A stretch of DNA of 64,000 bases from an uncultured Candidatus Saccharibacteria bacterium (lineage in GTDB: Bacteria > Patescibacteriota > Saccharimonadia > Saccharimonadales > AWTP1-31): positions 129,034 to 193,033 of the forward strand of contig CALCZR010000058.1 in assembly GCA_937903325.1 (NCBI GenBank). The letters are read 5' to 3'. Numbering within the stretch: the stretch's first letter is position 1; each line of letters begins with the position of its first letter. Below are positions 19,444-48,390 of the stretch, piece after piece. A program made the translations under genes and the position numbers. Below the pieces are notes generated by a model. It was not told the origin of the DNA. It saw only the letters and a program-made list of their open reading frames with translations, and made no database searches.

Positions 19444-19459
19444 TGGTGACCTCACCGGG
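19444..19459. repeat. att core, left copy (TGGTGACCTCACCGGG)
   Basis: Exact 16-bp match to 48316-48331, which is the 3' end (including CCA) of tRNA-Glu on the minus strand. Confidence 0.6.
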
Positions 19460-20474: not shown

Positions 20475-20590
20475 ATGGCTGTAATTATAGCACCAGAGGT
20501 CACTATTCTGTAAAACAATATTGCTTTACCCGCAATATTAAGCTACTCTTGCACTAGGAATACCTAACAGTGGTGGGTACGGGAGAAACG

Positions 20591-24785: not shown

Positions 24786-24824
24786 GGAGTAATTCCTTTA
24801 TGCATGTTTTTTAGCGTTACCGGT

Positions 24825-24853
24825 ATTCTACCCCCCCCTGAGATACAATGCAA
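24825..24853 (-). promoter_or_regulatory. Candidate promoter with G8 tract in spacer (member 1)
   Basis: Coding strand reads TTGCAT-TGTATCTCA-G8-TAGAAT, spacer 17 nt. The C run on the plus strand is 24831-24838. Confidence 0.5.
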
Positions 24854-24863
24854 GGAACTAGCC

Positions 24864-25097
24864 TTATAGTTCACCACTGAGTATTCGCGAGACATCGATG
24901 TAGCGTTGGCAGTCATCAATACTACGATCAGCTAGGGGAATGGCGAGGATACGCTCAAAGTCAGTCTGTGCGGCGGTCAAGTCTTCGTCGTAAGTTACAG
25001 CTAATTCCGAGGCCAATACTTTAGACCCGAGTGAAGACGGAAAATATAATCCATGTTCGGCGGCTATCAGCTCATAGTCTGGTATTCTGTCTGTCAT
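24864..25097 (-). CDS. Small acidic protein, paralog of 36511..36747
   Basis: 77 aa. Shares TY(D/E)..L..AQ..FER..AIP...R...D......DVS..L with the other copy. Both lie just downstream of a family member. Confidence 0.55.
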   Translation of the reverse strand: MTDRIPDYELIAAEHGLYFPSSLGSKVLASELAVTYDEDLTAAQTDFERILAIPLADRSIDDCQRYIDVSRILSGEL

Positions 25098-25128
25098 CTG
25101 TTAACCATACCATGAGGAACAATATTTA

Positions 25129-25186
25129 CTAACGTCTTTCTGTTGTGACAATCACCAGAGAGTCATAAGTTTTACTGGTTTTATGT
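25129..25186 (-). pseudogene. Relic of a sortase gene 3' end
   Basis: gacaatcaccagagagtcataagtttt matches the 3' ends of both island sortase genes with 1-2 mismatches. It translates as KTYDSLVIVTTERR*, against KTYDSRVIVVAEA(F/Y)* in the intact genes. No upstream sortase ORF remains. Confidence 0.5.
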
Positions 25187-25214
25187 ATTGGTTTTCCTCA
25201 AACGAGCCATAAAC

Positions 25215-26717
25215 CTACTTTAATGCAGTCCTCTTGCGTAGTGCGTAGGCAGTAATGCCAAGACCCAGAGAAGTGGCAATAATCGTCATAGCTGGAGATA
25301 CAGCGCCAATACCTGTGTTCGGAGCTCCTGCATTACCGCTACCAGGCGTAGAAGGAGTAGAGGCGCCACAGACAGCGCCTTCAAATTGGAAGGCTCCAAC
25401 GGATGGACAGTCGTCTGGGCGTGCCACACCACGAGCATCGGTAGTAATACCAAGCACCGAGCTACCAGCTGCGATGGCTGGAGATCCAGCTAGAAGCGCG
25501 CGAGTCGGAACATTGCCGCCGTTGTCCTGAAGTGGACCAAGGGTTGGAATAATATTATCGAAGTTTTGCTGGTCACCAGGTTGGTTGAAGCCAGCGCAGC
25601 TATCGTCATCGGAGATGTTATGGCCGAGAGAGGTAATACTCGTTTCGACATCATCTTCAGTGCCATTTCCACTAAATATATCCGTTAGATTAGCGATGGA
25701 GCAATTTGAGGACACGCCGTCATTAGTATTGTCCGCCATAAGACTATTGGTAACGTTAACTGCTACGTTAGCGTGATACCCAACTTGGAAAGAAGCTGCT
25801 GCGGCGTAGAAGGCGGCCGACTTAACACCCGCAGCACTGTTCGTGCCGGTAAAACCTCGAGTCCCAGTAATGGTTATATTCTGCACACTCGTATTGACAG
25901 ATACGTTGCCCGAAGCCGCCACCCCAAAACTACCAAACGGCGCAACAAGATCATCGCCCGTAACGTCATCGACTGTTGTATTGGCTATGCTCGAAGTAAC
26001 ACTTGCGCTACCCGTAGCCAGCATAATGACACCAAAGGTAGGACCCGCCCCACTTCCGTGAATATCGGCCAGCGTCACCCTATTGAGGTCGGCAGTTATT
26101 GCCGTCTCGTTGGCCGCATTTATATAGAAAGTATATAAGCTATTGTTGCCTTGTATATTGTGGATATATACATCGTCCGCATCGACGGTTAGCTGAGCAC
26201 TCTGGTCGCCAAACACGCCCACAGGAGTATCCGACGATAGTTCCGCGTCCTGCCCATCCACTTCTAAATTACGAAGAGTGGTATTAACGTCGACCATTTG
26301 AATCGCACTTCCAGAGTAGGCTGTAATTTTCATATCCCTGAGTGTCACATCAAAGGTCGCCCCCAAACTATCTGCAATGAAAACATTGTACAGTCCGGCA
26401 TCACCGTTAACGGTTGTCTGCCCCATGCCCGCACCAGCAATGGTGACTGGCTCGGTAATTGGTGGCAAGTCTGCAGTAAGGGTTTGAGTTCCGGATGGAA
26501 TGTTAATGGTGTCGTTCGTTCCATAGCCAGACCCACCGCAACTTGCCTGTGCGGAACCAGCGTTGACCGAGTCAACCGCATCGTTAAGAGTACAGCCAGA
26601 CCCAACAGTAATGGTTGCAGCATGAGCTCGTCCAGAACCGAAAGCTATTACTGCCAAAAAAGCGAAAGTGGCCAGGATAAGCTTATTTGTTTTTGTTAGA
26701 TTTAAAATGCTTTCCAT
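25215..26717 (-). CDS. Secreted beta-helix surface protein, family member 2
   Basis: Same signal peptide (MESILNLTKTNKLILATFAFLAVIAFGSGRAHA), same conserved C-terminal block, then GAPNTG, a TM and RKRTALK. Confidence 0.85.
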   Translation of the reverse strand: MESILNLTKTNKLILATFAFLAVIAFGSGRAHAATITVGSGCTLNDAVDSVNAGSAQASCGGSGYGTNDTINIPSGTQTLTADLPPITEPVTIAGAGMGQTTVNGDAGLYNVFIADSLGATFDVTLRDMKITAYSGSAIQMVDVNTTLRNLEVDGQDAELSSDTPVGVFGDQSAQLTVDADDVYIHNIQGNNSLYTFYINAANETAITADLNRVTLADIHGSGAGPTFGVIMLATGSASVTSSIANTTVDDVTGDDLVAPFGSFGVAASGNVSVNTSVQNITITGTRGFTGTNSAAGVKSAAFYAAAASFQVGYHANVAVNVTNSLMADNTNDGVSSNCSIANLTDIFSGNGTEDDVETSITSLGHNISDDDSCAGFNQPGDQQNFDNIIPTLGPLQDNGGNVPTRALLAGSPAIAAGSSVLGITTDARGVARPDDCPSVGAFQFEGAVCGASTPSTPGSGNAGAPNTGIGAVSPAMTIIATSLGLGITAYALRKRTALK

Positions 26718-26752
26718 TTATAATTCCTACTTTACGCTAGTGTTTAAATGGT

Positions 26753-26780
26753 AGTCTACCCCCCCGTAAGTTATTTGCAA
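26753..26780 (-). promoter_or_regulatory. Candidate promoter with G7 tract in spacer (member 2)
   Basis: TTGCAA-ATAACTTAC-G7-TAGACT, spacer 16 nt. C run 26759-26765. Confidence 0.5.
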
Positions 26781-26930
26781 GAACACCTGTTTGAACCACT
26801 CGTATGTATTACCCTTACGGTTGACGATTGTGGCACATTTGAGGTAAAATGTAGCTACAATTGATTCGCTTTCCGAACTGTCACCGTATGGTGCGCGTGC
26901 CTGGGACAACCAGGATAGGAAGCGAATTTT

Positions 26931-27551
26931 TTATTTGAAGTACCAAATATCTTCAGTGCGCTTGTTGATAACTTTTAGGTAGATATCGCTGTCAGTTTTA
27001 CGCTTTTGAGTTGTTCGTAAAAGACTACCCGCAACCATATCTGCCAGCTGAATCAAGTTATCATTCTTAGAGTTAACAAACTTCATATCTTTTATTATGC
27101 TACCGTCTGGATTAGCCTGCTGGCGAAAATACGTTGTTGCCGCTTTCTTGTAGGACCGGTCTTCGTGACCATCAAGACGAATCCGTCCATCGGTAATCTT
27201 GCCAGCACTTTTAGAGAGCACCTCTTTGATCATGTAGTTATAGAATTTATCCTTGTTTCTCCTAAGTTCAACGCTTCTGATGATAGACTTATCGGCGACT
27301 ATTGCCCGAACCCGGAACTTACAACTTTTTATCTCGTTTAAAAAAGCGAGACGTATATCTTTACTAGCTTTGTTGAACTTAAACTCATGATCGTCTCGCC
27401 ATCCAAGCGAACGACGCAATCGCTTGATCTTAAGTGCCGTTTCTTCGGCATCAAGGTTGTCATCAAAGACAATGCAGGCAATAACAAAGTGTGTGCTCGA
27501 ACCCTTATCAAATTTAAAGCCCGGATCTCCTGAATCATCTATGAATACCAG
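26931..27551 (-). CDS. DUF3800 domain protein, copy 1 (likely non-canonical start)
   Basis: C-terminal LIQLADMVAG motif. The frame stays open upstream of the track start (27419) to 27557 and encodes LVFIDDSGDPGF, the DUF3800 N-terminal motif. No ATG/GTG/TTG is available there (CTG at 27551, ATA at 27554). Confidence 0.65.
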   Translation of the reverse strand: MVFIDDSGDPGFKFDKGSSTHFVIACIVFDDNLDAEETALKIKRLRRSLGWRDDHEFKFNKASKDIRLAFLNEIKSCKFRVRAIVADKSIIRSVELRRNKDKFYNYMIKEVLSKSAGKITDGRIRLDGHEDRSYKKAATTYFRQQANPDGSIIKDMKFVNSKNDNLIQLADMVAGSLLRTTQKRKTDSDIYLKVINKRTEDIWYFK

Positions 27552-27600
27552 TATGTATTATATGATCATATTTAGATCAAAGCCACCGGGTAGGTCTATA

Positions 27601-29118
27601 CTAGGCTCGCTTGCGAGCGAAGACATATCCGAGAGTTAGTAACCCGGCAAAAGAAGCAAACAACGAACCAACGAGAGAGACAGAATTAGCGCCGGTGTTT
27701 GGTGCTCCTGCATTACCGCTACCAGACGTAGAAGGAGTGGAGGCGCCACAGACAGCACCTTCGAACTGGAAGGCACCGACAGATGGGCAAGCGTTTGGAC
27801 GAGCGATTCCACGGGCGTCGGTGGTCACACCGAGTACTGAACCGCCAGCAGAAATAGCTGGAGAGCCAGGCAGAAGTGCACGGGTTGGAACGGCGCCGCC
27901 GTTGTCTTGGAGAGGACCAAGGGTAGAGTATACATTGGACACATTATGCTGATCGGTTGGAGAAGTAAACGAACCGGCACAACTGTTATCATCAAAAATA
28001 TTGTGACCTAGCGAGTTAACAGAAACTACTCCTGTCCCAAGTCCACTAGCTAATGCTGTGAAATCTCCTACAGCACAGTTATTTGATACTCCATTACTTT
28101 TGTTGTTTGCCAGAAGACTATTGCCAACCGAGATTGTACTTGTGGCGGTTGTACCTGCCCCAACGCCTAACGATGCTGCATAGAAAGCTGCCGAGGCTGC
28201 TAATCCGGTTGGGTCTAGTGTACCGTCTGTCCCAGTGACAGTGACGTTATTAATGATTGTATTCACAAGTGCATCACCATTATTGGAATAAGCGTTATTG
28301 GAGAACGGCGCAGCAATTGTAGTAGTCGAATAGACATTATCAATTGTAATATTAGCAGCGTTAGCGTTGAGCGTACCAAAACCACCAAAGACGTTATCCC
28401 ACAAGCCGACTGAAAGCATTACGCCAATAGTACCGCCCCCAGAAGTAGTATTTGAGATGTTTGCAATGGTAATATTTTGCAAGGATACATTTGATACCCC
28501 ACCTTGCCCCTGGTTAATTAACAACGCTCCAACAACATTCGCCGAACCTACAATGTCATGTACATAAATGTCACTAAGGTTAACCGTTCTTGTACCCGAA
28601 GAAAGGGATTGCAAGAATATAGCTTCAAATTCGCCACTTGCTGGCTGGGCATCGCTACCGTCTACTTCAATATTATTTATATTTAGAGTCTCATCTGTGT
28701 TAGATAAGATTGCGTAGCCGCTATACGCGATAACCTTTAAATTGCTGATGGTTGCAGATATCCCAGTACCGATTTCTATACCATTATACTGTCCATTGTC
28801 TCCATCAATTATGGTTTGGCTCATACCGGCACCGTTAATAACTATATCTTCGGTGATTACAGGTATGTCTGCAGTCAGCGTCTGAGTTCCCGACGGGATA
28901 TTGATGGTGTCATTGGTGCCGTAACTGCCTACAGCAGTACACCCAGACTGGTTGTTACCAGCGTTCACTGAGTCAATAGCAATAGCAAGCGTGCAACCAC
29001 CAGTTATATTGAGTGTTGCGGCATGAGCTCGGCCAGAACCAAAAGCCAGAACAGCCAAAAAGGCAAAAGCTGCCAGGACTAGTTTGTTTGTTTTACAGAG
29101 ATTAAGGATGTTTTGCAT
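27601..29118 (-). CDS. Secreted beta-helix surface protein, family member 3
   Basis: The family N-terminus starts at MQNILNLCKTNKLVLAAFAFLAVLAFGSGRAHA (ATG 29118, AGGAA RBS). Conserved C-terminal block, then GAPNTG, a TM and RKRA. Confidence 0.85.
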   Translation of the reverse strand: MQNILNLCKTNKLVLAAFAFLAVLAFGSGRAHAATLNITGGCTLAIAIDSVNAGNNQSGCTAVGSYGTNDTINIPSGTQTLTADIPVITEDIVINGAGMSQTIIDGDNGQYNGIEIGTGISATISNLKVIAYSGYAILSNTDETLNINNIEVDGSDAQPASGEFEAIFLQSLSSGTRTVNLSDIYVHDIVGSANVVGALLINQGQGGVSNVSLQNITIANISNTTSGGGTIGVMLSVGLWDNVFGGFGTLNANAANITIDNVYSTTTIAAPFSNNAYSNNGDALVNTIINNVTVTGTDGTLDPTGLAASAAFYAASLGVGAGTTATSTISVGNSLLANNKSNGVSNNCAVGDFTALASGLGTGVVSVNSLGHNIFDDNSCAGSFTSPTDQHNVSNVYSTLGPLQDNGGAVPTRALLPGSPAISAGGSVLGVTTDARGIARPNACPSVGAFQFEGAVCGASTPSTSGSGNAGAPNTGANSVSLVGSLFASFAGLLTLGYVFARKRA

Positions 29119-29189
29119 GCAGAGTATTCCTATCAATTTGTTTACGCTTATGCTTATTGTATCATTTGAGCCTTGCTCATATGTAATTG

Positions 29190-32100
29190 TTAACTTATGG
29201 GTGTGATTACAGTTGGAGCAAACCCTGTTGGGCTTGAATGACTTTGTGGAATTGTCATAGAAACGGTAGTGCCTTTTCCAGGAGTACTTTGGACAGTTAT
29301 GCCTCCGCCAAGTTTCTGCAGAATCATGCGGGTGATATACAAGTTAAGTCCAAGTCCGGGGTGATCAAAGGTTGTCGAATCTGTACCGCGAGTTAATGGC
29401 TCGAAAAGATGTGCCATCACCTCCGGTGACATACCAACCCCTTTGTCATGTACTGTTATGAGCGTTTTGCCGCCAACAGATTTACTGCTGATAGTTACGG
29501 CACTATTGGCATTGCTAAATTGAACAGCATTTTCGACCGTTGATCGAATAATCTGAGTTAGTTCTTCTGGCTGCATTTGCACAACAGAGGTGGAGCTGAG
29601 TAAATTGCTCACGGTCACCCCTTTTTCGGCAGTCAGTTTAGATAGTAACGGTGCAATATTTTGCTCGTAAGCGTGTTGGACAGAAATATTTGGAGCAGGA
29701 CCGCCAACAACACTAAAACGGCTTACCTTTCCAAGTGACTCAGATAATTGGACCAACTGCCCAATACCATTAGTAAGCAGCTTAGTGTCGGGGAACTGCT
29801 CCAGACCTACCGTGCCAGACTGTAATGCACTGGCATGGGAAGCTAAACTGGTAGCCGCATCAGCTACAAAGGATTTCTTTTGATCTAGTAATTGTTGCTC
29901 GGTTGCTAGTCGCTGTTTTATTTGGGTGTGAAGTTGTCGCTGTTTTTTCCAGGCCAGAAACGTTACTACTGCAGCGATCGCACCAAAGAATGCCCACATT
30001 AATTGATTCAGGTATCGCCCCCAGCTATGATCGTAGGATTTACTAAAGTACAATGCCAAATCTGTCACCGTCACGAGCCCTGCAATGCCAGCCAACGGCA
30101 CCCACAACTGTTTGTTTGATGTGGCCAGGACTTCGCCAGAAACTACCGGACGATCTCCAGGTGCTAATGCTTGCTCTGCCTGATACGTGAGGTTATTTGA
30201 TGTTGTCTGCAGGGCGACAAGCTTAGCCTTGAATTGGGCAATAAATTCCGGCTGCAATGCATGCTTTGATGCAATCAACTCTAAAGCGCCGTTCATGATA
30301 CTAAGCGGCGTATTAAGATAATGTGTAATTATCGCCAAGAAATCCGAGACTGATTGCCTAGTAGTACTAACTTTTGTTAGTAGGTCGGCCATAGCTTTCT
30401 GGTACCGATACTCACGCCATGCACGGTAAGCATAGTACAACGCCAGGAGCAGTAACCAGGACAAGAAGAAATATGGTGCGAGGCTTACTTTTGGTTGCTT
30501 CGTTATCAGGGGGAATGGCGCAGGAAGTTCAGTCTCTGGAACTTTTGAGATATCTAATAGTACTGGCTCTTCTTCACCAGCGGGCGTCTCGATAGTAGTC
30601 ACCGGACCTCCACCCGAACTCGTTGGTCGATTTGGGCGTGTAGGGGTAACTGGGGTAGTTGGTGTTGTTGGATTAGTAGGAGTTGGCGGAGTCCCGGGCA
30701 CCAGCACATCGTATATGCCAAGTACCCAGCTACTCTGCCCGACAGCATTAACGGCGGATACCTGGAAATCATATCGGGCACCGGATGTTAGGCCCGTAAT
30801 GGTAGCCGAAGTATTTGTGCTCGGCGGATGGCTAAACTCAAGCCACTCATTGGTACCCTTTAGTCGATATTGTATGCGGTAGTTAATAATCGGTGTACCG
30901 CCATCGTTAGCCGGCGGATCCCACGACAATGCCATGCTCGATGAGGTGGGAGTACCGCCAAGGTTACGCGGGGGCCCAGGCAGGCTCTCGCCTGGAGTAA
31001 ACGTTGGATAGATGGCAACATGGCTGTACCAAACGGGTAAGCTAAAATCCCACGTATCAAGCGGCGGGTTGCTTGTATTATTTTTGAAATAGTTCGGCGA
31101 TTGATTGCCTGCATTTACCGTATGACACACTACCGTATTGTTGTAAATACTCTGAGTTAGTATAGGATCTGCGTCGGGATCGACTGGGCCCTCGACCTCT
31201 AGCCAGTTGGCACAGGGCACATCACCGCTGAGTGAAGCATCAAAGTAGTTATTGACAAGCATAGTATCGGCTTCGCTGGAAGTGATTGTCCCTTGACCTT
31301 CACTAAAAACGTGGGTAAAACGACCGACGAGTGCACCTTCGTTCGGATTGCTGGTGTTTGGTATCGTCGCGGCGCTGAATGAATTAGTAATAGTGCTGCG
31401 GGGGTTAGGGTTTCCGCTTACATCTGTCACACTGACTCCTCCGACAAGACCTCCGGTATTTGAGTCGTAGGCATTTTTTGCAACCTCGGGTGTTTCTGTT
31501 GCAAACTCAGGCTGTTCATTACCTAAAACCCCAGTCGCATATGATGAGGTTATATCGGTATGATCGGCAGTTCCAATCAGGCCACCAACAGAGGCTCCAA
31601 GTTCGATATATCCGTTTTGATCATCATACTCTAAAGTTGTGACAGCGCCTGATACAACACCGGCTGCGTAGGTATCGGTCAGTGTCACCCTCGCGGTGCC
31701 AGAGCCAATCGTTCCACTCACGCCGATCAGGCCGCCCAGTGCGTATCCGGCCTGCACCGAACCGGTAGCATAGGCCTGCCGTATAGCGACTTGGCCTTGG
31801 GCAATACCAATCAATCCGCCCGCGCCAGCTCCACCATTCTGGTTAGCAAAGTAACCTTGGCCCGCTACCGAACCGGTAGCATGTACTCGAGTAATCGTTG
31901 CGGTTCCGAGCGCGCTAATACTACCAATTAGACCACCCGCTCGAACCAGTGTGCCTGTACCCGCTACATAATCTTGTGCGAGGCCAACCGACCCGGTAGC
32001 ATACACGTCCTGAAGCGCATGATTATATCCCTGCAAAGACCCAGCAAGTCCGCCGAGTCCACCAACAACCTGTTTGCCACCTATACTCACCAGTCCTGTA

Positions 32101-36005: not shown

Positions 36006-36107
36006 ATATACTCTTATGGTTACCTCTATTGTACTAGAGTTGCCGACTACTTACTGACATTTTGTTAATTTGCACACTGTAAGTACAATTAAGCACAAGG
36101 ACATACC

Positions 36108-36509
36108 ATGAAAGTTTCATCAAAATTTCACCCCATAACGCCGTATCTCTGTCTTATATTAGTTGCAATCGGGATAACTGCCTATGTCGCATATCACAAG
36201 GGTAATACCAACAGACAGGACCAATCAACCAGGCAAGCCAAAGCACAAACTCTAGACAGCGCCTTCGAGAGCTCAGCAAGCTTCTTTAAACGTAATATTA
36301 CTGGCACTGTCAGTAAAGTCAGCGCAAAACAGATTACCATTGTATCGCCTAACTCTACCGAACAAACCTTTAACCTTACCCCAAAAACCATATTCCAACG
36401 TGCAGGCCAGAAAATATCCGTAACCGATCTAAAGAAAGATCAGCAAGTAACTATCTTAAGAAGTATATCTGACTATTCACAAGCAGCTGGAATTACAATC
36501 AATAGGTAG
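36108..36509 (+). CDS. Hypothetical membrane-anchored protein (133 aa)
   Basis: N-terminal TM YLCLILVAIGITAYVAY. Divergent from the giant kinase gene; the only plus-strand gene in the cargo. Confidence 0.5.
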   Translation: MKVSSKFHPITPYLCLILVAIGITAYVAYHKGNTNRQDQSTRQAKAQTLDSAFESSASFFKRNITGTVSKVSAKQITIVSPNSTEQTFNLTPKTIFQRAGQKISVTDLKKDQQVTILRSISDYSQAAGITINR

Positions 36510-36510
36510 T

Positions 36511-36747
36511 CTAGTCAGCTAGTAGTAGCATCGAAACATCTTCGAAAAGAGCATGGTCTTGTGCTGTACGTAAATCGATGGGAATAGCACCTAGTCTTTC
36601 GAATTCACTCTGGGCCCAATCCAAACTCTGCTCGTACGTCATGCCTATATGAATATCGAGCATTTCAGGGGTCATACTAATTCTTTCAGGAGCAGCAAAC
36701 CCATTGGCCGCCGCCGCAAGATCCGCTTCCCCAATCTGTTCTAACAT
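36511..36747 (-). CDS. Small acidic protein, paralog of 24864..25097
   Basis: 78 aa; shared motifs as listed for the other copy. Lies directly downstream of member 4. Confidence 0.55.
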   Translation of the reverse strand: MLEQIGEADLAAAANGFAAPERISMTPEMLDIHIGMTYEQSLDWAQSEFERLGAIPIDLRTAQDHALFEDVSMLLLAD

Positions 36748-36781
36748 GTTACTAGTTTACTATTCTTTTCGATACGTGCAA

Positions 36782-38467
36782 CTATTCTTTAGCGTATTGC
36801 TTGGCTATAAAAATAAGCATGCTAAATCCAGAAGTAAGTGCAAATACGCCACTTAAGACAGACTCATGACCCGAGCCAGTGTTAGGGGCGGACGCACCGC
36901 CGGTAGATGAAGGATTCTGGGTTTGGTCTCCAAGAACACCCTGGTAGGCACCTACACTGTAATAACCAGTCCGAGCTACACCGCGAGCATCGGTTGTAAT
37001 ACCCAGCACTTGTCCGCCCGCGTTTATTGCAGGGGAACCAGGAAGGAGCTTAATTGTTGGTACGGGGCCGCCATTATCTGCAACTTCGTGCTCTATGGTG
37101 TCATATAAGTTAGGAACGATCGTATAGTCGGTGCACTTTGGATCATCGGCCATATTATTTCCGAGGTTCTCGGGTGTTAGGTCATAGCTGCCGCTCAGAC
37201 CAAGAGCAGAACCATCAAAATCAGAACGACAGCTATAGCTATTGCCGTTAAAGGTATTGTGAGCTATTAGGCTGTTCTGAGCCGAACCACCCGATTCAGC
37301 ATCGATTGGCTGGCTATTGCCATCCAAAGTCGCACCAACTATGAAGAATGCTGGTATTGATCCAAAAGGACTAGGCGTAATTTGTGTCACACTGTTGCCT
37401 ACAACAGTAGAGTTAGTGAAGTTTATTTTTTCAGGCGCGTTAATGAGTAATCCGAAAAACCCACTGACGGAAGCGTGGTTATCAAACTCGTTAATAGCTT
37501 GATTATTCACGACCGTCACATTTGTTAAGTTCAAGCCAGGGTTGATATTGGCGACGCCAAGATTAAAACCGGTGACATAGGCAGGCTGAAAGGGGTTGCC
37601 ACTGCTTGATGCCTGTGTCGGCTGCGAGATATTTCCAGCGACCGTAACCGCATCTATTCTAATGTCTGCGAAAGCACTGTTCTCCTTATAATCAACGTTA
37701 ACACCTGCGTCACCCACGGATTGATTATCCATAACGGTTGTTCGTTCCAATGTTAGTGCTAGTGAAGCCGCAGTAGCTGAATTAGCTGCAACAGACAGAC
37801 CAGCAACTTCATCAACATCAGCACCCGAGTTATTATTGACTTGAGAATCTGCAACGGTTATTGAGATGTCATCAGTACTATTGACTGCATTAGCAATTAG
37901 GTACAACCCAACGGAATTACCTGTTGCAACATTGTCATGTATATTCGTATTGGTCACAGTGATATGTACTGCTCCAATTCTGACACCAAAACTGGAATTC
38001 TCTACCTCTACATCATCAATAGTTATGTCGTGAGCACCGTTTATATCAATTGCGTAGGGCGAGGCATCAATTATTTTAAATCCATTGAGCGTTTTATCGA
38101 TGGTGTTTGCAGCGTTTGCTGTAAAGCCTCGATAACCATTCGCGTCAATAGTTGTAACTGCCTTGCCAGCACCCTGGACAACGATGTCTGCACCAGAAGT
38201 AAACGAATTCAAATTTTCAGAAAGTGTAATCGTTCCTGCTGGCAGATTAATAGTATCGTTGGTTCCATATGCTGTACCAGTTTTTACGCAACCATTTCCA
38301 TCTACTGCATTATTAGTTGCATCAATTGCTTCGTTGAGTGTGCAGTTGCTATCTACTGCTAGCGTGGCTGCATGCACCCGACCCGAACCAAAGGCAAGCA
38401 CTGCCAAGAAGGCGAAGATTGCCAGAATGAGTTTATTTGTTTTTGATAGATTCAGAATGCTTTGCAT
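36782..38467 (-). CDS. Secreted beta-helix surface protein, family member 4 (most divergent, 561 aa)
   Basis: Signal peptide MQSILNLSKTNKLILAIFAFLAVLAFGSGRVHA. C-terminal DNGGPVPTIKLLPGSPAINAGGQVLGITTDARGVAR, then SAPNTG, a TM and KQYAKE. Confidence 0.85.
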   Translation of the reverse strand: MQSILNLSKTNKLILAIFAFLAVLAFGSGRVHAATLAVDSNCTLNEAIDATNNAVDGNGCVKTGTAYGTNDTINLPAGTITLSENLNSFTSGADIVVQGAGKAVTTIDANGYRGFTANAANTIDKTLNGFKIIDASPYAIDINGAHDITIDDVEVENSSFGVRIGAVHITVTNTNIHDNVATGNSVGLYLIANAVNSTDDISITVADSQVNNNSGADVDEVAGLSVAANSATAASLALTLERTTVMDNQSVGDAGVNVDYKENSAFADIRIDAVTVAGNISQPTQASSSGNPFQPAYVTGFNLGVANINPGLNLTNVTVVNNQAINEFDNHASVSGFFGLLINAPEKINFTNSTVVGNSVTQITPSPFGSIPAFFIVGATLDGNSQPIDAESGGSAQNSLIAHNTFNGNSYSCRSDFDGSALGLSGSYDLTPENLGNNMADDPKCTDYTIVPNLYDTIEHEVADNGGPVPTIKLLPGSPAINAGGQVLGITTDARGVARTGYYSVGAYQGVLGDQTQNPSSTGGASAPNTGSGHESVLSGVFALTSGFSMLIFIAKQYAKE

Positions 38468-38504
38468 GTGTTAGTTCCTATGTTAACGCTTGTGTTTAAT
38501 AGGT

Positions 38505-38533
38505 AGTCTACCCCCCCCGGAAATTTTGAGCAA
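38505..38533 (-). promoter_or_regulatory. Candidate promoter with G8 tract in spacer (member 4)
   Basis: TTGCTC-AAAATTTCC-G8-TAGACT, spacer 17 nt. C run 38511-38518. Confidence 0.5.
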
Positions 38534-38544
38534 GTCTAAGCTAC

Positions 38545-39243
38545 CTAGAAGGCTTCTGCGACAACAATCACCCGAGAGTCATAGGTTTTACTATCTTTGT
38601 CGAACTTACCAGTGCAGGTAATTAGGTTAAGCTGCTTAGAAATGGTCTTGTCACGCACAAAGAGAGCCGTATCGGCCTCTTTGGTGGAAACTGTTTGGAC
38701 TTGTTTGACTTTGAACCTTCTAACGCTTTTATCGCCAAATGTAACGCTAAACTTGTCGTCTGTTTTAAGTTTGCCAATGTTATAAAAGATACCTTTGGCA
38801 TACAGCCCATGTACATGGCCATCCAGAATGCTCAGACCATCTGCACCAGGCAAAACACTGCCCGTGTACCAGCCAGCCATATGCACATTATTAGGCACTA
38901 CCATCCGGTTTTCTTTATCTACGCCTACCTGCTGAATGAAGCCCCCTGCCTTAACAGTTGGAAGCTGGATTGATAGCGGTTTATCTGCGGTAACACTATA
39001 GTTTTTTGGGGGGAGTTGCTCACTGGGCTCATCAGTAGAAACGGTAGCCACGGTGTGCCCAGCCGGTACGCCAGCATGCTGGATTTTGTACCATTTGCGC
39101 ACAGCATTTACGCCGATACCTATCAACACTACGCCAACAATAAGAGCCACGAGCCGTGTTTTTTGCCGAGTTGAAAGCGACCGCCACTTACCCTTTGCGA
39201 TGTTCTTGGTGGTTTTCTTTGATCTTTTCTTATTGAGAGCCAT
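38545..39243 (-). CDS. Sortase (island copy 1)
   Basis: N-terminal TM; LDGHVHG (His), LITCTGKFD (Cys), SRVIVV (Arg). Starts 4 nt after the member 5 stop. Confidence 0.85.
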   Translation of the reverse strand: MALNKKRSKKTTKNIAKGKWRSLSTRQKTRLVALIVGVVLIGIGVNAVRKWYKIQHAGVPAGHTVATVSTDEPSEQLPPKNYSVTADKPLSIQLPTVKAGGFIQQVGVDKENRMVVPNNVHMAGWYTGSVLPGADGLSILDGHVHGLYAKGIFYNIGKLKTDDKFSVTFGDKSVRRFKVKQVQTVSTKEADTALFVRDKTISKQLNLITCTGKFDKDSKTYDSRVIVVAEAF

Positions 39244-39247
39244 GTAC

Positions 39248-40720
39248 CTATTTTACCGCAACTCGCTTGCGGAATGCATAGGTAATCATACTTATGCCAA
39301 GTGCACTTGCAATAATAGTCATCAGGGTTGAAGCAGTTTTTGCTCCGGTGTTTGGGGCGGCAGCACCGCCAGCATTTGCATTGGTTGTAGTTACTGCGCA
39401 GACTGCCCCTTCGAATTGGAAGGCTCCAACAGATGGACAAGTGTTTGGGCGAGCAATACCGCGGGCGTCGGTGGTAACTCCCAGAACTGAACTACCAGAT
39501 GAAATCGCGGGGCTTCCAGCCAACAGTGCGCGAGTAGGGACTACTCCACCATTGTTTTGGAGCGGGCCAAGGGTTGAGATGATATTGATGACATTTTGTT
39601 GGTCGCCTGTTTGATTAAAGTTCGCACAACTAGCGTCATCTGATATGTTGTAGCCAGCTGAAGTTATGGAGGTTGTAACCGTACCTTGGCCACCAATATT
39701 GCCGGTCATATCACCGAACGAACAGTTGGACGGCGACCCGTTGCTAAGGTTGTCTGCCATAAGGCTATTGCTCACCGTAACTGCTACATCAACACTGTCG
39801 CCAGCTTGATATGCGTTACCTGCCGCATAGAATGCCGCGGTGTTAAGCCCGGCCGTAAAGCCAGTCCCAGCAATTCCGCGTGTACCCGTGATAGTAATGT
39901 TATTGACCGTGGTGTTGATGGTTGCATTACCACCGTTCATACTGCCATAGCTTGCAAATGGCGCAGTCAAACCAGTGCTTGTAATGTCATCGACTGTCGT
40001 GTTGGTAATCGTCGATGTCAAGGCAGCATTATCACCACTAGCAACCATGATAATGCCATTCACACCGTTACCACCATTGTTATGCACGTCGGCAAGCGTA
40101 ACATTACGCAAACTAGCATTTACGACAGCGTCCGTCCTGGCCTCTACCCAGAATCCCTGTACATAACCACTTGAACTGTTAATCCCATGTATATAGATGT
40201 TTTCCGCTTCAACGGTATACGTTCCTGCAGTATTAGTCGAATACTGAATTCCAATGGTTCCAGTAGCATCTTGCCCATCTATCTCTATATTAGACAGCTG
40301 AACATTACGACTTAGCCTAACTGCGGTATCGGAAAACGCTGTAATCTTTAAGTCCCTAATAGTAACGTCAGTGGTTGCTGTAAGAACTCTATATTGACCC
40401 ATGTCGCCACTAATCGTTGTCTGGTTCATACCTACGCCAGCAATCGTTACAGGTACTGAAATATTGTTAACGTCACTGGTTAGCGTTTGTGTTCCTGCAG
40501 GAATATTAATGGTGTCGCTCGTTCCATAGCTTGTGCCAGTACAACCGCCCGTGTTCGTAGCATCATTTATGGAGGTGATGGCGTTGAATAACGAACAGCC
40601 GCCAGACACTGTTAGTGTTGCAGCATGTGCCTGACCGGAGCCAAGACCAACCACAGCCAGGAAGGCAATGGCTGCCAAAATGAGTTTGTTTGTTTTTGTT
40701 AGATTTAAAATACTTTCCAT
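39248..40720 (-). CDS. Secreted beta-helix surface protein, family member 5
   Basis: MESILNLTKTNKLILAAIAFLAVVGLGSGQAHA; conserved C-terminal block; AAPNTG, a TM and RKRVAVK. Confidence 0.85.
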   Translation of the reverse strand: MESILNLTKTNKLILAAIAFLAVVGLGSGQAHAATLTVSGGCSLFNAITSINDATNTGGCTGTSYGTSDTINIPAGTQTLTSDVNNISVPVTIAGVGMNQTTISGDMGQYRVLTATTDVTIRDLKITAFSDTAVRLSRNVQLSNIEIDGQDATGTIGIQYSTNTAGTYTVEAENIYIHGINSSSGYVQGFWVEARTDAVVNASLRNVTLADVHNNGGNGVNGIIMVASGDNAALTSTITNTTVDDITSTGLTAPFASYGSMNGGNATINTTVNNITITGTRGIAGTGFTAGLNTAAFYAAGNAYQAGDSVDVAVTVSNSLMADNLSNGSPSNCSFGDMTGNIGGQGTVTTSITSAGYNISDDASCANFNQTGDQQNVINIISTLGPLQNNGGVVPTRALLAGSPAISSGSSVLGVTTDARGIARPNTCPSVGAFQFEGAVCAVTTTNANAGGAAAPNTGAKTASTLMTIIASALGISMITYAFRKRVAVK

Positions 40721-40755
40721 TTATAATTCCTACTTTACGCTAGTGTTTAAATGGT

Positions 40756-40783
40756 AGTCTACCCCCCCGTAAGTTATTTGCAA
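40756..40783 (-). promoter_or_regulatory. Candidate promoter with G7 tract in spacer (member 5)
   Basis: Identical to the member 2 promoter and lies inside the exact repeat. C run 40762-40768. Confidence 0.5.
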
Positions 40784-40933
40784 GAACACCTGTTTGAACC
40801 ACTCGTATGTATTACCCTTACGGTTGACGATTGTGGCACATTTGAGGTAAAATGTAGCTACAATTGATTCGCTTTCCGAACTGTCACCGTATGGTGCGCG
40901 TGCCTGGGACAACCAGGATAGGAAGCGAATTTT

Positions 40934-41554
40934 TTATTTGAAGTACCAAATATCTTCAGTGCGCTTGTTGATAACTTTTAGGTAGATATCGCTGTCAGTT
41001 TTACGCTTTTGAGTTGTTCGTAAAAGACTACCCGCAACCATATCTGCCAGCTGAATCAAGTTATCATTCTTAGAGTTAACAAACTTCATATCTTTTATTA
41101 TGCTACCGTCTGGATTAGCCTGCTGGCGAAAATACGTTGTTGCCGCTTTCTTGTAGGACCGGTCTTCGTGACCATCAAGACGAATCCGTCCATCGGTAAT
41201 CTTGCCAGCACTTTTAGAGAGCACCTCTTTGATCATGTAGTTATAGAATTTATCCTTGTTTCTCCTAAGTTCAACGCTTCTGATGATAGACTTATCGGCG
41301 ACTATTGCCCGAACCCGGAACTTACAACTTTTTATCTCGTTTAAAAAAGCGAGACGTATATCTTTACTAGCTTTGTTGAACTTAAACTCATGATCGTCTC
41401 GCCATCCAAGCGAACGACGCAATCGCTTGATCTTAAGTGCCGTTTCTTCGGCATCAAGGTTGTCATCAAAGACAATGCAGGCAATAACAAAGTGTGTGCT
41501 CGAACCCTTATCAAATTTAAAGCCCGGATCTCCTGAATCATCTATGAATACCAG
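40934..41554 (-). CDS. DUF3800 domain protein, copy 2 (identical to copy 1)
   Basis: Identical sequence to 26931..27551. Confidence 0.65.
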   Translation of the reverse strand: MVFIDDSGDPGFKFDKGSSTHFVIACIVFDDNLDAEETALKIKRLRRSLGWRDDHEFKFNKASKDIRLAFLNEIKSCKFRVRAIVADKSIIRSVELRRNKDKFYNYMIKEVLSKSAGKITDGRIRLDGHEDRSYKKAATTYFRQQANPDGSIIKDMKFVNSKNDNLIQLADMVAGSLLRTTQKRKTDSDIYLKVINKRTEDIWYFK

Positions 41555-41603
41555 TATGTATTATATGATCATATTTAGCTCAAAGCTACTGGACAGGTCT
41601 AAA

Positions 41604-43100
41604 CTAGGCTCGCTTGTGAGCGAAGACATAACCGAGAGTTAATAGCCCGGTAAAAGAAGCAAGCAACGAACTTACGAGAGAGACAGGGTTAGCGCCGGTG
41701 TTTGGAGCTCCGGCATTAGTTCCTGCGTTAGTCGTAGAGGCCGCACAGACAGCTCCTTCAAATTGGAAGGCTCCAACGGAAGGACAATCGCTTGGGCGGG
41801 CAATACCACGAGCATCTGTAGTTACACCGAGTACTGAACCGCCCGAAGCTATGGCTGGTGAGCCAGGAAGGAGAGCACGAGTCGGAACAGCACCACCATT
41901 GTTCTGGAGAGGGCCGAGAGTGGAGATGATGTTATTGACGTTTTGTTGGTCGCCTTCTTCAGTAAAGGAGGTACAAGTAGCATCGTCGGAGATGTTGTGA
42001 CCGAGGGAGGCAGTAGTCGCAATTCCAGTTCCCGTCCCGCCAAAGCTACTAGTAAAGTTGGCGGACTCACAGTTGGAAGAGTTAGTATCAGTTAGGTTAT
42101 CAGCGAACAGACTATTACCCACACGAAGCGTAGAGGTTGCTACATCGCTACTACCCAACCCTGCTGCGGCTGAATAGAAAGCTGCTGATTTAATACCAGC
42201 AATCGGGAAGATAGCACCAGTCGAACCTCGGTTCCCAGTAATAGTGCTATTATAAACATCTACTGTTACATTTGCCGTGCCCCCACTAGCGAAAGCAAAG
42301 GTTGCATACGGCGCGCTAATTTCGCTGGCGCTTAGGTTGCTAAGAGTTGCATTACTGATAGTGCCATTGATATTGCCTACTGCACCAAAAGTGGGTACCG
42401 CCCCAATACCTAAGACAAACCCATCGAACGAGCCGCCGGAGTTGCTGGAATCGGCTAGAGTTATATTACTAAGATCGGCGGTTGTTGTTCCACCCCCGCT
42501 TTGGTGAACCGAGAATCCATACATAATATCATGATCATCATTAATGTCATGTAGGTAGATATTATTGCTTGTGATTGTCTTACTAGATGAAGTACTGTTG
42601 ACGATAATTATGCTATAGAAAGCGTCTGTGGCCCCCGTACCATCAACTTCAATATTCTCTAGTGTTACGTCACAGTCCTCGGTGCTGACCGCAGACTCTC
42701 TATATGCCGTCACTGTTAGATCAGATATAGCGATAGTTACATCTTGAGCTTCAAAGGCAACAGCATCACTGTCACCATCAACAATAGTATCGCCAATACC
42801 AGCCCCCTGTATCGTTACATCTTCAGTAATAGCGGGTAGACTTGCGGTAAGCGTAATGGTTCCTGCAGGAATAGTGATCGTGTCATTTGTGCCATATGAA
42901 TCAGGAGATACCACTGCAGTACAGCCAGATTGATTTGCGCCAGCGTTTACTGAGTTGATGGCAATTGGTAGCGTACAGCCTCCGGTCACGTTGAGCGTTG
43001 CAGCGTTAGCTCGTCCAGAACCAAATGTAAAAACAGCAAGAAAGGCAAAGGCGGCAAGAATTAATTTTGTTGTATTTGTTAGATTCAGAATGCTTTGCAT
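41604..43100 (-). CDS. Secreted beta-helix surface protein, family member 6
   Basis: MQSILNLTNTTKLILAAFAFLAVFTFGSGRANA; conserved C-terminal block; GAPNTG, a TM and HKRA. The C-terminus is closest to member 3. Confidence 0.85.
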   Translation of the reverse strand: MQSILNLTNTTKLILAAFAFLAVFTFGSGRANAATLNVTGGCTLPIAINSVNAGANQSGCTAVVSPDSYGTNDTITIPAGTITLTASLPAITEDVTIQGAGIGDTIVDGDSDAVAFEAQDVTIAISDLTVTAYRESAVSTEDCDVTLENIEVDGTGATDAFYSIIIVNSTSSSKTITSNNIYLHDINDDHDIMYGFSVHQSGGGTTTADLSNITLADSSNSGGSFDGFVLGIGAVPTFGAVGNINGTISNATLSNLSASEISAPYATFAFASGGTANVTVDVYNSTITGNRGSTGAIFPIAGIKSAAFYSAAAGLGSSDVATSTLRVGNSLFADNLTDTNSSNCESANFTSSFGGTGTGIATTASLGHNISDDATCTSFTEEGDQQNVNNIISTLGPLQNNGGAVPTRALLPGSPAIASGGSVLGVTTDARGIARPSDCPSVGAFQFEGAVCAASTTNAGTNAGAPNTGANPVSLVSSLLASFTGLLTLGYVFAHKRA

Positions 43101-43137
43101 GATTTAGTTCCTATGTTAACGCTTGTGTTTAATAGGT

Positions 43138-43166
43138 AGTCTACCCCCCCCCGATATTTTGAGCAA
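43138..43166 (-). promoter_or_regulatory. Candidate promoter with G9 tract in spacer (member 6)
   Basis: TTGCTC-AAAATATC-G9-TAGACT, spacer 17 nt. C run 43144-43152. Confidence 0.5.
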
Positions 43167-43177
43167 GTCTAAGCTAC

Positions 43178-43861
43178 CTAGTAGGCTTCAGCCACGACAA
43201 TCACCCGAGAGTCATAAGTTTTGCTATCTTTATCAAATCGACCAGTGCAGGTTATGAGGTTGAGCTGCTTGGGAATGGTCTTGTCGCGTACAAAGAGAGC
43301 GGTATCAGCTTCTTTGGTAGAAACTGTTTGGACTTGTTTGACCTTGAACTTTCTAACGCTTTTATCGCCGTAAGTTACCGTGAATGTATCACTAGTCTTG
43401 AGCTTACCCAGGTTGTAGAAGATTCCTTTAGCATATAGCCCATGCACATGCCCGTCGATAATACTGAGGCCAGCATCACCAGGCAAGGAGCCCTTGGTGT
43501 ACCAGCCAGCCATATGGACGTTGCTTGGTACTACCATCTGATTATCTTTGTCTACGCCTACCTGCTGGATAAAACCTTCTGTCTTAATTGTTGGCAACTG
43601 AATAGACAATGGCTTATCTTCTGGAACGCTGTAACTGTCCGGTACTGGCTGTTCGCTGGGAGCATCGGTGGATTCTGTTGCTACGGTGTGTCCAGTCGGT
43701 ACACCGGCATGTTGAATGAAGTACCAGTTTCGTATTGCATTCAGGCCAACGCCAACAAGTAATATGCCTACTATGAATAACGCAAAGCGAATATTTCGTT
43801 GATTCTTAGAGACTGCTCCACGCTTTGATGAATTACTTCTACGCTCCTTGAATCGAACCAT
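43178..43861 (-). CDS. Sortase (island copy 2)
   Basis: Paralog of 38545..39243 with a near-identical C-terminal half (VRKFKVKQVQTVSTKEADTALFVRDKTI.KQLNLITCTG.FDKDSKTYDSRVIVVAEA). Starts 15 nt after the member 7 stop. Confidence 0.85.
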   Translation of the reverse strand: MVRFKERRSNSSKRGAVSKNQRNIRFALFIVGILLVGVGLNAIRNWYFIQHAGVPTGHTVATESTDAPSEQPVPDSYSVPEDKPLSIQLPTIKTEGFIQQVGVDKDNQMVVPSNVHMAGWYTKGSLPGDAGLSIIDGHVHGLYAKGIFYNLGKLKTSDTFTVTYGDKSVRKFKVKQVQTVSTKEADTALFVRDKTIPKQLNLITCTGRFDKDSKTYDSRVIVVAEAY

Positions 43862-43876
43862 AGGTACTAATATAGA

Positions 43877-45376
43877 CTAGCTCGAGCGTTGTTGCTTGTG
43901 GAATACGTATGTTAGTAGTCCAATGCCGAGCATGCTGGCAAGCACATTGAGTATTTGTGCTACAGATCCAACGCCCGTGTTTGGAGCTCCTGCGTTACTA
44001 CCGCCAGATGCAGATGGAGTAGAAGCACCGCAGACTGCACCTTCATATTGGTAGGCACCTACAGATGGGCATTCATCTGGGCGTGCTACACCACGGGCAT
44101 CTGTAGTAATACCGAGGACAGAACCGCCAGCAGAAATTGCCGGAGAACCAGGAAGAAGTGCACGAGTTGGGACTGCGCCTCCGTTGTTTTGAAGAGGGCC
44201 AAGGGTGGAAATGATGTTATTAACATTTTGTTGATCGCCTGGTTGGTTGAAACCAGCGCAACTGGCATCGTCTGAGATATTGTAGCCAGCAGAAGTAATG
44301 ATGCTATTTACCGTGCCGACTCCGCCAACGTTACCTGACATATCTCCATAGGAACAGTTCGACGATACACCGTTATTTAGGTTGTCGGCCATAAGACTAT
44401 TGCTAACTGTAATGCTAACGTTGGCCTCATCACTAGGACCTCCGGCAAGTCCGGCGGCATAAAAAGCGGCCGTGTTTAACCCTGCAGTGATACCGCTACC
44501 CGCAAAGCCACGCACACCAGTAACGGTGATGTTATTGATATTAGTCGTTGCGGTGGAATCGCCATTTGTCGCTGCAGCAAATGTTGCAAACGGCGCTACG
44601 ATAAGTGAACTCGTGATGTCGTGAATAGTTGCGTTACTAATAACAGACGTGATAGTGCCGCCCCCATTACCTGGATAACCAGCGGATAGAATAATCCCGT
44701 TCACGCCAGCCAAAGTATTGTGGACATTAGCAAGTGTAATGTTGTTGATGTTTACATCATAATGCCCACCAGCTCGTGAGCCGACGCTGAACCCCTCTGC
44801 ATATTGCCCGTTTGTGCCAGTAAGACTATGGATATAAATATTCTCGGCACTGACATCTAACGAAGCACTGTTACTCGAAAAAATTATAATGCCATTTGCA
44901 TTACCTGTCTGGCCGGTGCCGTCTACTTCGATATTCTCGAGGACTACATCGCAGTTGACCAGCTGAATTGCTGTCGCCTTACTTGCAGTAACTTTTAGAT
45001 CGGTAACGGTAACAGATCCTGATGCCATACCGGTTTCAAACACCTTCCATGCATTACCGTTAATTGTGGTTTGGCTCATGCCAGCACCATGTATTTCCAC
45101 TGACTCTGTAAGCAGCGGCAGGTCGGCCGCCAACGTAACGGTACCGGCAGGAATGGTAATGGTGTCACTCGTCCCGTAGCTAGCACCCGTTGCTGTGCAA
45201 CCAGACTGGTTTGCTGCAGCATTAACAGAGTTGATAGCAATTGGCAGCGTGCAGCCACCCGTTACATTAAGAGTTGCAGCATGTGCCCTACCCGAACCAA
45301 AAGCCAAGACTGCCACAAAGGCAAAAGCCGCTAGGACTAATTTGTTTGTTTTAGTTAGATTCAGAATACTGAGCAT
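43877..45376 (-). CDS. Secreted beta-helix surface protein, family member 7
   Basis: The family N-terminus begins at MLSILNLTKTNKLVLAAFAFVAVLAFGSGRAHA (ATG 45376). The track ORF's 44-aa upstream extension runs through the promoter and G tract. GAPNTG, a TM and HKQQRSS. Confidence 0.85.
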   Translation of the reverse strand: MLSILNLTKTNKLVLAAFAFVAVLAFGSGRAHAATLNVTGGCTLPIAINSVNAAANQSGCTATGASYGTSDTITIPAGTVTLAADLPLLTESVEIHGAGMSQTTINGNAWKVFETGMASGSVTVTDLKVTASKATAIQLVNCDVVLENIEVDGTGQTGNANGIIIFSSNSASLDVSAENIYIHSLTGTNGQYAEGFSVGSRAGGHYDVNINNITLANVHNTLAGVNGIILSAGYPGNGGGTITSVISNATIHDITSSLIVAPFATFAAATNGDSTATTNINNITVTGVRGFAGSGITAGLNTAAFYAAGLAGGPSDEANVSITVSNSLMADNLNNGVSSNCSYGDMSGNVGGVGTVNSIITSAGYNISDDASCAGFNQPGDQQNVNNIISTLGPLQNNGGAVPTRALLPGSPAISAGGSVLGITTDARGVARPDECPSVGAYQYEGAVCGASTPSASGGSNAGAPNTGVGSVAQILNVLASMLGIGLLTYVFHKQQRSS

Positions 45377-45412
45377 GGTGAGTTTCCTTATATAATTTAT
45401 AGCGTTACCGGT

Positions 45413-45442
45413 ATTGTACCCCCCCCCGAATATAGTGCGCAA
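45413..45442 (-). promoter_or_regulatory. Candidate promoter with G9 tract in spacer (member 7)
   Basis: TTGCGC-ACTATATTC-G9-TACAAT, spacer 18 nt. C run 45419-45427. Confidence 0.5.
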
Positions 45443-48356: not shown

Positions 48357-48390
48357 GAACCCGATTTCCTAACCGTTAGAAGATGAGGCC
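48316..48390 (-). tRNA. tRNA-Glu(CUC), CCA encoded
   Basis: The reverse complement GGCCTCATCTTCTAACGGTTAGGAAATCGGGTTCTCATCCCGGCAATCCGGGTTCGATTCCCGGTGAGGTCACCA folds as a 75-nt cloverleaf. Anticodon loop TTCTCAT. Confidence 0.85.

Follow-up and report, generated by a model that had tools for sequence, protein, structure and literature searches.

This study deals with a 64,000-nucleotide (nt) stretch of DNA, hereafter the window, from an uncultured Candidatus Saccharibacteria bacterium (GenBank assembly GCA_937903325.1, contig CALCZR010000058.1, positions 129,034 to 193,033 of the forward strand), and with a family of surface-protein genes within it. The family has seven paralogous members, all on the minus strand and named here g1 to g7 by rising plus-strand coordinate, and six of them carry on the coding strand a run of seven to nine G residues (G7-G9) inside the promoter spacer, between a -35-like and a -10-like element. 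We propose that slippage in these tracts probably alters the -35/-10 spacing of each gene separately, switching or grading its transcription, and would thus allow combinatorial variation of a sortase-anchored beta-helix coat.

Results

The seven genes are g1 (491 amino acids (aa), 23310..24785), g2 (500 aa, 25215..26717), g3 (505 aa, 27601..29118), g4 (561 aa, a longer variant, 36782..38467), g5 (490 aa, 39248..40720), g6 (498 aa, 41604..43100) and g7 (499 aa, 43877..45376), and the paralogs are 37-51% identical to g1. In what follows, L-numbers designate loci retrieved from related assemblies and P-numbers homologous proteins; g6 is identical to P0002 and g7 to P0001. The true start codon of g7 is the ATG at 45376, and a longer, mechanically called open reading frame (ORF), which extends to 45508, reads through the promoter. 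All seven products share an N-terminal signal peptide (M-x-S-I-L-N-L-T-K-T-N-K-L...) and an invariant C-terminal APNTG (7/7), a predicted sortase sorting signal, followed by a hydrophobic stretch and K/R residues. The NCBIfam model NF041518 (choice-of-anchor Q) matches g1 with 64.4 bits and g4 with 55.6 bits, both above its cutoff of 25, and a Pfam search of the paralogs returned no match. An AlphaFold2 model of g1 (62 homologs, mean pLDDT 86.8) folds as a right-handed parallel beta-helix, with matches at the level of the fold only to AlgE4, Rhombotarget A and PL6 lyases. Two sortase genes are adjacent, also on the minus strand: sortase 1 (232 aa, 38545..39243; PF04203, 65.5 bits), whose best match, to a class F model, scores 107 bits and so stays under the 166-bit cutoff of that model, and sortase 2 (227 aa, 43178..43861; PF04203). 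Signal peptides, the APNTG motif with its hydrophobic segment and basic tail, the neighbouring sortases and the beta-helix model together mark the products as surface-exposed, and uphold the description of the genes as a sortase-anchored multigene family. The products of g1-g7 are probably adhesins or glycan-binding proteins of an epibiont.

Upstream of six of these genes the minus strand has a common layout, namely TTGCNN, 8-9 nt, G(7-9), TA[GC]A[AC]T, a leader of 35-39 nt with AGGAA, and the ATG. The tract occupies the -10-proximal half of the spacer and abuts the -10 box. The g1 promoter (24825..24853) consists of TTGCAT (24848-24853), a 9-nt prefix, G8 (24831-24838) and TAGAAT (24825-24830), with a spacer of 17 nt, and that of g2 (26753..26780) of TTGCAA (26775-26780), G7 (26759-26765) and TAGACT (26753-26758), with a spacer of 16 nt. 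The g4 promoter (38505..38533) begins 12 nt past the stop codon of sortase 1 and has TTGCTC (38528-38533), G8 (38511-38518) and TAGACT (38505-38510), spacer 17 nt; the g5 promoter (40756..40783) has TTGCAA (40778-40783), G7 (40762-40768) and TAGACT (40756-40761), spacer 16 nt. Upstream of g6 (43138..43166) we find TTGCTC (43161-43166), an 8-nt prefix, G9 (43144-43152) and TAGACT (43138-43143), spacer 17 nt, and upstream of g7 (45413..45442) TTGCGC (45437-45442), G9 (45419-45427) and TACAAT (45413-45418), spacer 18 nt. A homopolymer lying between a -35-like and a -10-like element, the hallmark of promoter-spacer phase-variation loci, is therefore present at six genes. A preliminary description of the locus, made from the letters of the sequence, had arrived at the same anatomy, and our scan reproduces it in full: the plus-strand C runs have precisely the positions and lengths that it gave, the hexamers and spacers (17, 16, 17, 16, 17, 18) are the same, the leader that it put at about 37 nt is the one measured above, and no G/C run of at least 7 nt other than these six exists on either strand of the 64 kb. 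As it also said, the tract is found at six of the seven genes, the exception being g3 (ATG at 29118).

The exception is informative about the -10 element. The g3 promoter (29156..29164, minus strand) is an extended -10, TGATACAAT, which stands in register with the -10 boxes of the six others, and it has neither TTGC nor a tract. The tract-less group is made up of g3 and its orthologs or relatives L011, L012, L031 (locus 9317) and L063, all with TGnTAnAnT, and the extended -10 (TGnTACAAT or TGTTACACT) lies at the same distance from the ATG as does TAnAnT in the tract-bearing genes. This shared register marks TAnAnT as the likely -10, and it is on this register, together with conservation, that the promoter call rests. 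TTGC is absent at the corresponding distance from the tract-less relatives; L063 does carry TTGACA, but at a spacing of 15 nt. In a small sample, other genes of the window were also seen to be preceded by extended -10 motifs such as TGATACAAT. These observations suggest two classes of promoter in the family, the one with an extended -10 that would be independent of a -35 element, and the other dependent on its -35 and with a spacer of which half is homopolymer.

The concentration of G runs at this one position is not random. A degenerate 24-nt motif, GGGGGTASAMTACCDDTWAHRCWM, which runs from the end of the tract across the -10 box into the first part of the leader, has 6 matches in the window and 0 in 100 shuffles. 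Against run counts expected from a first-order Markov model of the window, G/C runs of at least 9 nt number 2 (expected 0.2) and those of at least 8 nt number 4 (expected 0.8), and all six G/C runs of at least 7 nt are borne by promoters, so that tracts are over-represented at these loci relative to background. Of G/C runs of at least 6 nt, only 2 lie outside these promoters (C6 at 32538-32543 and G6 at 39008-39013, both intragenic), where 16.0 +/- 4.0 are expected for the window as a whole. G/C runs of at least 5 nt are likewise fewer than expected in the whole window (42 vs 67.6), as are A/T runs of at least 7 nt (2 vs 9.5). Homopolymers are thus generally avoided in the window and concentrated at one functional position. 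Their scarcity fits selection against runs prone to slippage in a lineage from which MutS and MutL are reportedly missing. The six copies are not independent of one another: the upstream regions of g2 and g5 lie in a duplication of 93.8% identity (26671-27928 and 40674-41925), and those of g4 and g6 in one of 81% identity.

A scan of the paralog alignment against GTDB species genomes returned 29 loci, 20 of them from Saccharibacteria; a metagenome scan added three loci, and identical-protein look-ups added further related strains. After removal of duplicates, 29 distinct alleles from about ten Saccharibacteria assemblies and from metagenomes were available, and the relatives of the window are Candidatus Saccharibacteria metagenome-assembled genomes (MAGs) throughout. 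Among the Saccharibacteria loci of the GTDB scan, nearly all members of the family share the promoter layout, with tracts of G7-G10, and TTGC-N7-9-G(n)-TAnAnT is present in all 29 distinct alleles. Their tracts measure 7 nt in 4 alleles, 8 nt in 6 (2 of them interrupted), 9 nt in 16 and 10 nt in 3, and the spacers 16 nt in 5, 17 nt in 9, 18 nt in 12 and 19 nt in 3. Across alleles, TTGC and positions T1, A2, A4 and T6 of the -10 are near-invariant, and the neighbouring positions carry less than 0.5 bit. The tract is kept even in homologs of 34-42% protein identity that have different signal peptides and the anchors LADTG or LAGTG (L014, L016) and whose promoter flanks are otherwise unalignable, and the layout is also found upstream of an unrelated secreted BNR-like protein (L002). 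Two more distant family members, P0107 from elsewhere in the same genome and P0097 from a distant lineage, have genes that immediately follow another gene and lack a promoter tract, which shows the feature to be confined to part of the family. A scan of viral contigs for the promoter motif returned no match.

Separately, the P0097 gene has a G7 run within its coding region, identical in three assemblies (L060, L061 and L062 1533-1539); in a lineage without mismatch repair, this run could act as a switch of the frameshift type.

Comparison of the same loci in related genomes, a check that the preliminary description had called for, reveals not only the conserved position of the tract but also its varying length. 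For g1, the window has G8 whereas L039 and L007 have G9, with identical flanks; for g5, the lengths are G7 in the window against G9 in L031, L033 and L041 (two Joint Genome Institute (JGI) assemblies and one NCBI record). Promoters of the g7 type with near-identical flanks have G10 (L005), G7 (L006) or G9 (L017), and those of the g2 type G9 (L007) or G7 (L013). At least four ortholog groups thus vary by 1-3 G, while their flanks of 30 and 50 nt are identical or nearly so, in the clearest cases at most one base apart, and have no indel; such interstrain length polymorphism between conserved flanks is one of the features expected of a contingency locus. In pairwise alignments, the tract indels stand out as clean gaps in conserved sequence, and most other gaps are noise of the alignment in diverged coding stretches. 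In 2 of the 29 alleles (L009 5725-5732 and L015 2842-2849; g2/g5-type) the tract is interrupted, as GGGGGAGG, and the spacer is precisely 17 nt; these alleles may be "locked" variants that are no longer able to slip. The proposal of a candidate phase-variation switch at each gene therefore gains support from the conserved position, from the change of length between strains and from spacers of 16-19 nt, all of them features read from sequence.

The window itself is 100% identical to contigs from ENA metagenomes, and g6 has G9 in the same-strain assemblies L035-L037. Among the identical-protein look-ups, which mostly returned the same strain, there was no pair of contigs from one sample with differing tract length. 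One Logan contig (L038) begins inside the g6 tract, and we attribute this start to the leader repeat common to g4 and g6, not to heterogeneity.

A change of another kind was seen in a g2-like gene, where a 1-nt deletion (TTT to TT) at position 1851 of L047 (ENA ERZ650243) splits the gene into ORFs of 150 aa and 348 aa. L047 comes from a single assembly of low coverage (2.9x), and its contig also fuses the region downstream of g6 to g2-like sequence; the deletion may reflect an error of sequencing or else a true frameshift variant.

The gene cluster appears to lie on a larger integrated unit. The 16-nt sequence TGGTGACCTCACCGGG, which is the 3' end of a tRNA-Glu gene (48316-48390, minus strand), occurs as direct repeats at 19444-19459 and 48316-48331, 28.9 kb apart. 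A serine recombinase gene (46641-48356, plus strand) abuts the tRNA-Glu gene, and homology with the related genome L001 stops precisely at 19444. A recombinase beside a tRNA gene and a distant direct repeat of the 3' end of that tRNA gene are the signature of a tRNA-integrated element, and the interval holds the serine recombinase, a Replic_Relax protein, a PLD-like protein, a homolog of coupling proteins and the whole surface-protein cluster. It therefore looks as if the cluster sits on an element of about 29 kb integrated at tRNA-Glu. As for conjugation genes, the proteins scanned include weak matches to Replic_Relax (27.3 bits) and to TrwB/TraG-D_C; no VirB4 turned up among them, no search having been aimed at VirB4. 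The coupling-protein homolog is split into two plus-strand ORFs, 20570-22078 (502 aa) and 22109-23239 (376 aa), and gene calling on the identical ENA contig L030 gave the same split; the homolog may be a pseudogene or else a genuine protein in two parts.

Discussion

The strength of sigma-70 promoters depends on the length of the spacer between -35 and -10, and this is the property on which the tracts described here would act. In the model that we propose, each of the six genes would have its own sigma-70-type promoter, with TTGC and TAnAnT as the active elements. In the apparent absence of mismatch repair, runs of G7-G10 would gain and lose bases at high frequency by slipped-strand mispairing, and each base gained or lost would change the distance between the -35 element and the -10 by 1 bp, within the observed range of 16-19 nt. 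As the three bases upstream of the -10 stay GGG at any length of the tract, slippage would alter nothing but the -35/-10 distance. Transcription of that single gene would be raised or lowered as a result, 17 nt being probably the optimum. Such switching would take place within populations and be reversible, and six independent switches, along with one tract-less paralog with a TGn extended -10, would generate a combinatorially variable coat. A published pangenomic analysis did not find MutS and MutL in Saccharibacteria (PMC8406219), and G7-G10 tracts would for this reason be highly unstable, as they are in Campylobacter.

A number of observations weigh against this model. Length polymorphism alone is no proof of regulation, since any long homopolymer is prone to indels, and the commonest state among the alleles, G9 with a spacer of 18 nt, does not single out which length would be "on". 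At g1, g2/g5, g4, g6 and g7 the consensus lengths agree among five assemblies of the window's strain that stem from different samples, and g4 has G8 in all other assemblies found, which come from several studies. If switching is real, it follows that population majorities are not shifted quickly, or that g4 is held at a spacer of 17 nt by selection. Moreover, g4 (G8) and g6 (G9) differ in tract length through a C-to-G substitution, with the spacer of 17 nt unchanged, and not through slippage. Finally, a generic scan of the window for sigma-70 consensus promoters and terminators did not flag the six promoters; it misses these sites because TTGCNN agrees with TTGACA at only three of six positions.

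The stability of the consensus lengths within the strain, and of G8 at g4 across strains, would also suit a different view, which we regard as unlikely but as the most serious competitor, namely that the G run is a fixed cis-element, either part of an alternative -10 of the sigma-B/F type or the site of a regulator, for example one under the control of histidine kinases within the cluster or next to it, and that its length differences are tolerated polymorphism. The consensus of sigma-B/F promoters is GTTT-N12-15-GGG[AT]A[AT], and GGGTA does directly precede the conserved A and T in every allele. In addition, potential partners in signalling are close at hand, with a 2271-aa protein in the cluster that combines FN3 domains and a histidine kinase, and a PAS histidine kinase and a response regulator just outside it. 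However, the invariant T1, A2, A4 and T6 make up the TAnAnT pattern of sigma-70, and the tract-less paralogs have TGnTAnAnT in the same register. After GGGTA, the sixth position is occupied by G, C or T, and A4 and T6 suit sigma-70; the conserved upstream element is TTGC, and there is no -35 of the GTTT type as sigma-B/F would use. A protein-binding site would also not be expected to tolerate lengths of 7-10 nt or an internal A between identical flanks, and even if one were present, changes of length would still shift the -35/-10 spacing.

Less probable again is that the tract is a neutral by-product, which arose once in an ancestor and was spread by duplication of the gene family with no effect on expression. 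The six copies in the window do form three duplication-related groups, and homopolymer lengths vary in any genome, particularly in one that lacks mismatch repair. Yet the tract persists at 34% protein identity, where the flanks can no longer be aligned (L016), and homopolymers are depleted elsewhere in the window. An unselected G9 in a lineage without mismatch repair should decay by interruption, yet interruptions are found in only 2 of 29 alleles; a spacing that ranges over 16-19 nt is, on general knowledge of sigma-70-type promoters, unlikely to be neutral.

Comparison of the related promoters with g1, g4 and g7 of the window also brought to light mosaics (L009 795, L015 194, L002 5892, L032 788 and L010 1852). 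The upstream half ggttgaactcaaggcTTGCATtgtaactca is followed by a leader of the g1 type in L009 and by one of the g4 type in L015, and in L002, L032 and L010 an upstream half of the g1 type is followed by a leader of the g7 type. The G run, or the sequence right beside it, therefore looks like a recombination junction. One could suppose that the run, as the one sequence common to promoter halves that otherwise differ, serves chiefly as such a junction, at which upstream (-35) modules are reassorted with leader-plus-gene modules among paralogs. We consider this very improbable as the main role, given that 7-10 nt of identity are very short for homologous recombination, that the breakpoints do not resolve to the tract itself, and that mosaicism leaves the length polymorphism between identical flanks unexplained; such reassortment is compatible with a spacer switch and does not exclude it. 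Although several contigs have low coverage (2-6x according to their SPAdes names), we reject the idea that the tracts or their lengths are artefacts of sequencing or assembly, be it homopolymer miscalls or the poly-G of two-colour Illumina chemistry, as next to impossible, because lengths are identical among five independent assemblies of one strain and also between two separate JGI assemblies from a related strain, the differences reach 2-3 nt (G7 vs G9 vs G10), and the tracts are internal to contigs, in conserved context and in many studies.

Slippage in a promoter spacer, the reading that we prefer, would have well-known counterparts. In Neisseria meningitidis, porA (poly-G) and opc (poly-C) likewise have a G/C homopolymer between the -35 and the -10 of a gene for an outer-surface protein, and slippage changes the spacer length and hence the level of transcription. 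Mycoplasma hyorhinis, like the organism studied here a host-dependent bacterium with a reduced genome, has in vlp a multigene surface family with independent spacer homopolymers, where a poly-A in the promoter spacer of each gene results in combinatorial surface variation. For porA and opc, PMC5084427 cites van der Ende 1995 and Sarkari 1994 on promoter-spacer phase variation, and the Vlp system is cited in PMC11868660. Our case differs from porA/opc in that the bearer is a Gram-positive-like, sortase-bearing member of the Saccharibacteria that lacks mismatch repair, not a proteobacterial pathogen, and in that six paralogs each have a tract; the tracts are shorter (7-10 nt) and abut the -10. 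It differs from vlp, which uses poly-A and encodes lipoproteins that vary in size as well, by way of coding repeats, in having poly-G and no such repeats that we could see.

The C-stretches of fim2, fim3 and fimX in Bordetella pertussis and Bordetella bronchiseptica are also per-gene homopolymers upstream of the -10 whose length varies between strains, and a difference of 1 nt in fimX (C7 vs C8) changed the transcript level 3.8-fold (PMC1891110). The Bordetella tracts are longer (up to C19) and lie between the BvgA activator site and the -10, and their products are fimbrial subunits, whereas here the genes encode sortase-anchored beta-helix proteins. With several paralogs, each with its own tract, the fim and vlp systems are the closest analogues. 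Campylobacter jejuni offers a further parallel: as described in PMC8355987 and PMC8437040, it is deficient in mismatch repair, and G/C tracts of about 8-11 nt, otherwise rare, act as dedicated, hypermutable switches of surface structures. Saccharibacteria are likewise reported to lack MutS and MutL. The tracts of C. jejuni are mostly intragenic and cause frameshifts, in contrast to the six of six that lie in promoter spacers here.

The type of mechanism is thus known, and what would be new is its occurrence in the phylum Saccharibacteria of the Candidate Phyla Radiation (CPR), the choice-of-anchor Q gene family with APNTG, the short tracts that abut the -10 and the location on a mobile element. 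Our literature search, with its incomplete coverage, returned no report of phase variation mediated by simple sequence repeats in Saccharibacteria or the CPR. We judge the chances to be about even that this is the first simple-sequence contingency system to be described in the CPR, with an epibiont free of mismatch repair using per-gene poly-G switches on a tRNA-integrated element to vary its sortase-anchored beta-helix proteins in combination, and with the G tract perhaps also serving as a junction for reshuffling. Attachment to host bacteria is the way of life of Saccharibacteria and other CPR bacteria, and how they recognize and switch hosts and escape their defences is largely unexplained. 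If our model is correct, it would supply a concrete and testable mechanism of surface diversity in a genome of about 0.7 Mb with very few regulators, and contingency loci based on slippage would extend beyond animal pathogens; the proteins themselves may determine how the cells attach to their hosts, or may serve to evade host defences or phages. The record names of the related MAGs suggest that they derive from water or sewage treatment. Metagenomic reads that already exist give direct access to the tract lengths, which makes for a cheap test of the hypothesis. Overall, we see in these data a lead into the surface variation of CPR epibionts and no new principle.

Additional observations

Further features of the cluster and of the leaders were noted. 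In the middle of the cluster, the gene of the 2271-aa protein (29190-36005, minus strand) encodes a large extracellular region, with FN3 domains and a weak match to an IgA-protease N-terminal-like domain, transmembrane segments and a C-terminal histidine kinase (HisKA/HATPase), and g3 lies directly downstream of it. The PAS histidine kinase and the response regulator are encoded just outside the cluster.

Two other properties of the tract were considered and set aside: a G-quadruplex is ruled out by the single G run per promoter, and transcriptional or translational slippage by the position of the tract, which lies in non-coding sequence ahead of the -10 box. In the leaders, no conserved pairs emerged from RNAalifold, and an Rfam search returned no match. 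Leaders of the g1/g7 type contain the 7-nt motif TAACGCT (in g1, for instance, at 24808-24824). In leaders of the g2/g4/g5/g6/g3 type the motif is found in reverse complement, as AGCGTTA or AGCGTAA, and at another offset (in g4, for instance, at 38480-38500); it could be a half-site for the binding of a protein. Lastly, two copies of the Rfam motif DUF3800-IX (RF02968, 71.4 bits) are present on the plus strand at 26863-26932 and 40866-40935. Each lies some 85 nt upstream of the g2 or g5 -35 element and directly adjoins, at its 3' end, a duplicated DUF3800 gene that is encoded on the opposite strand.

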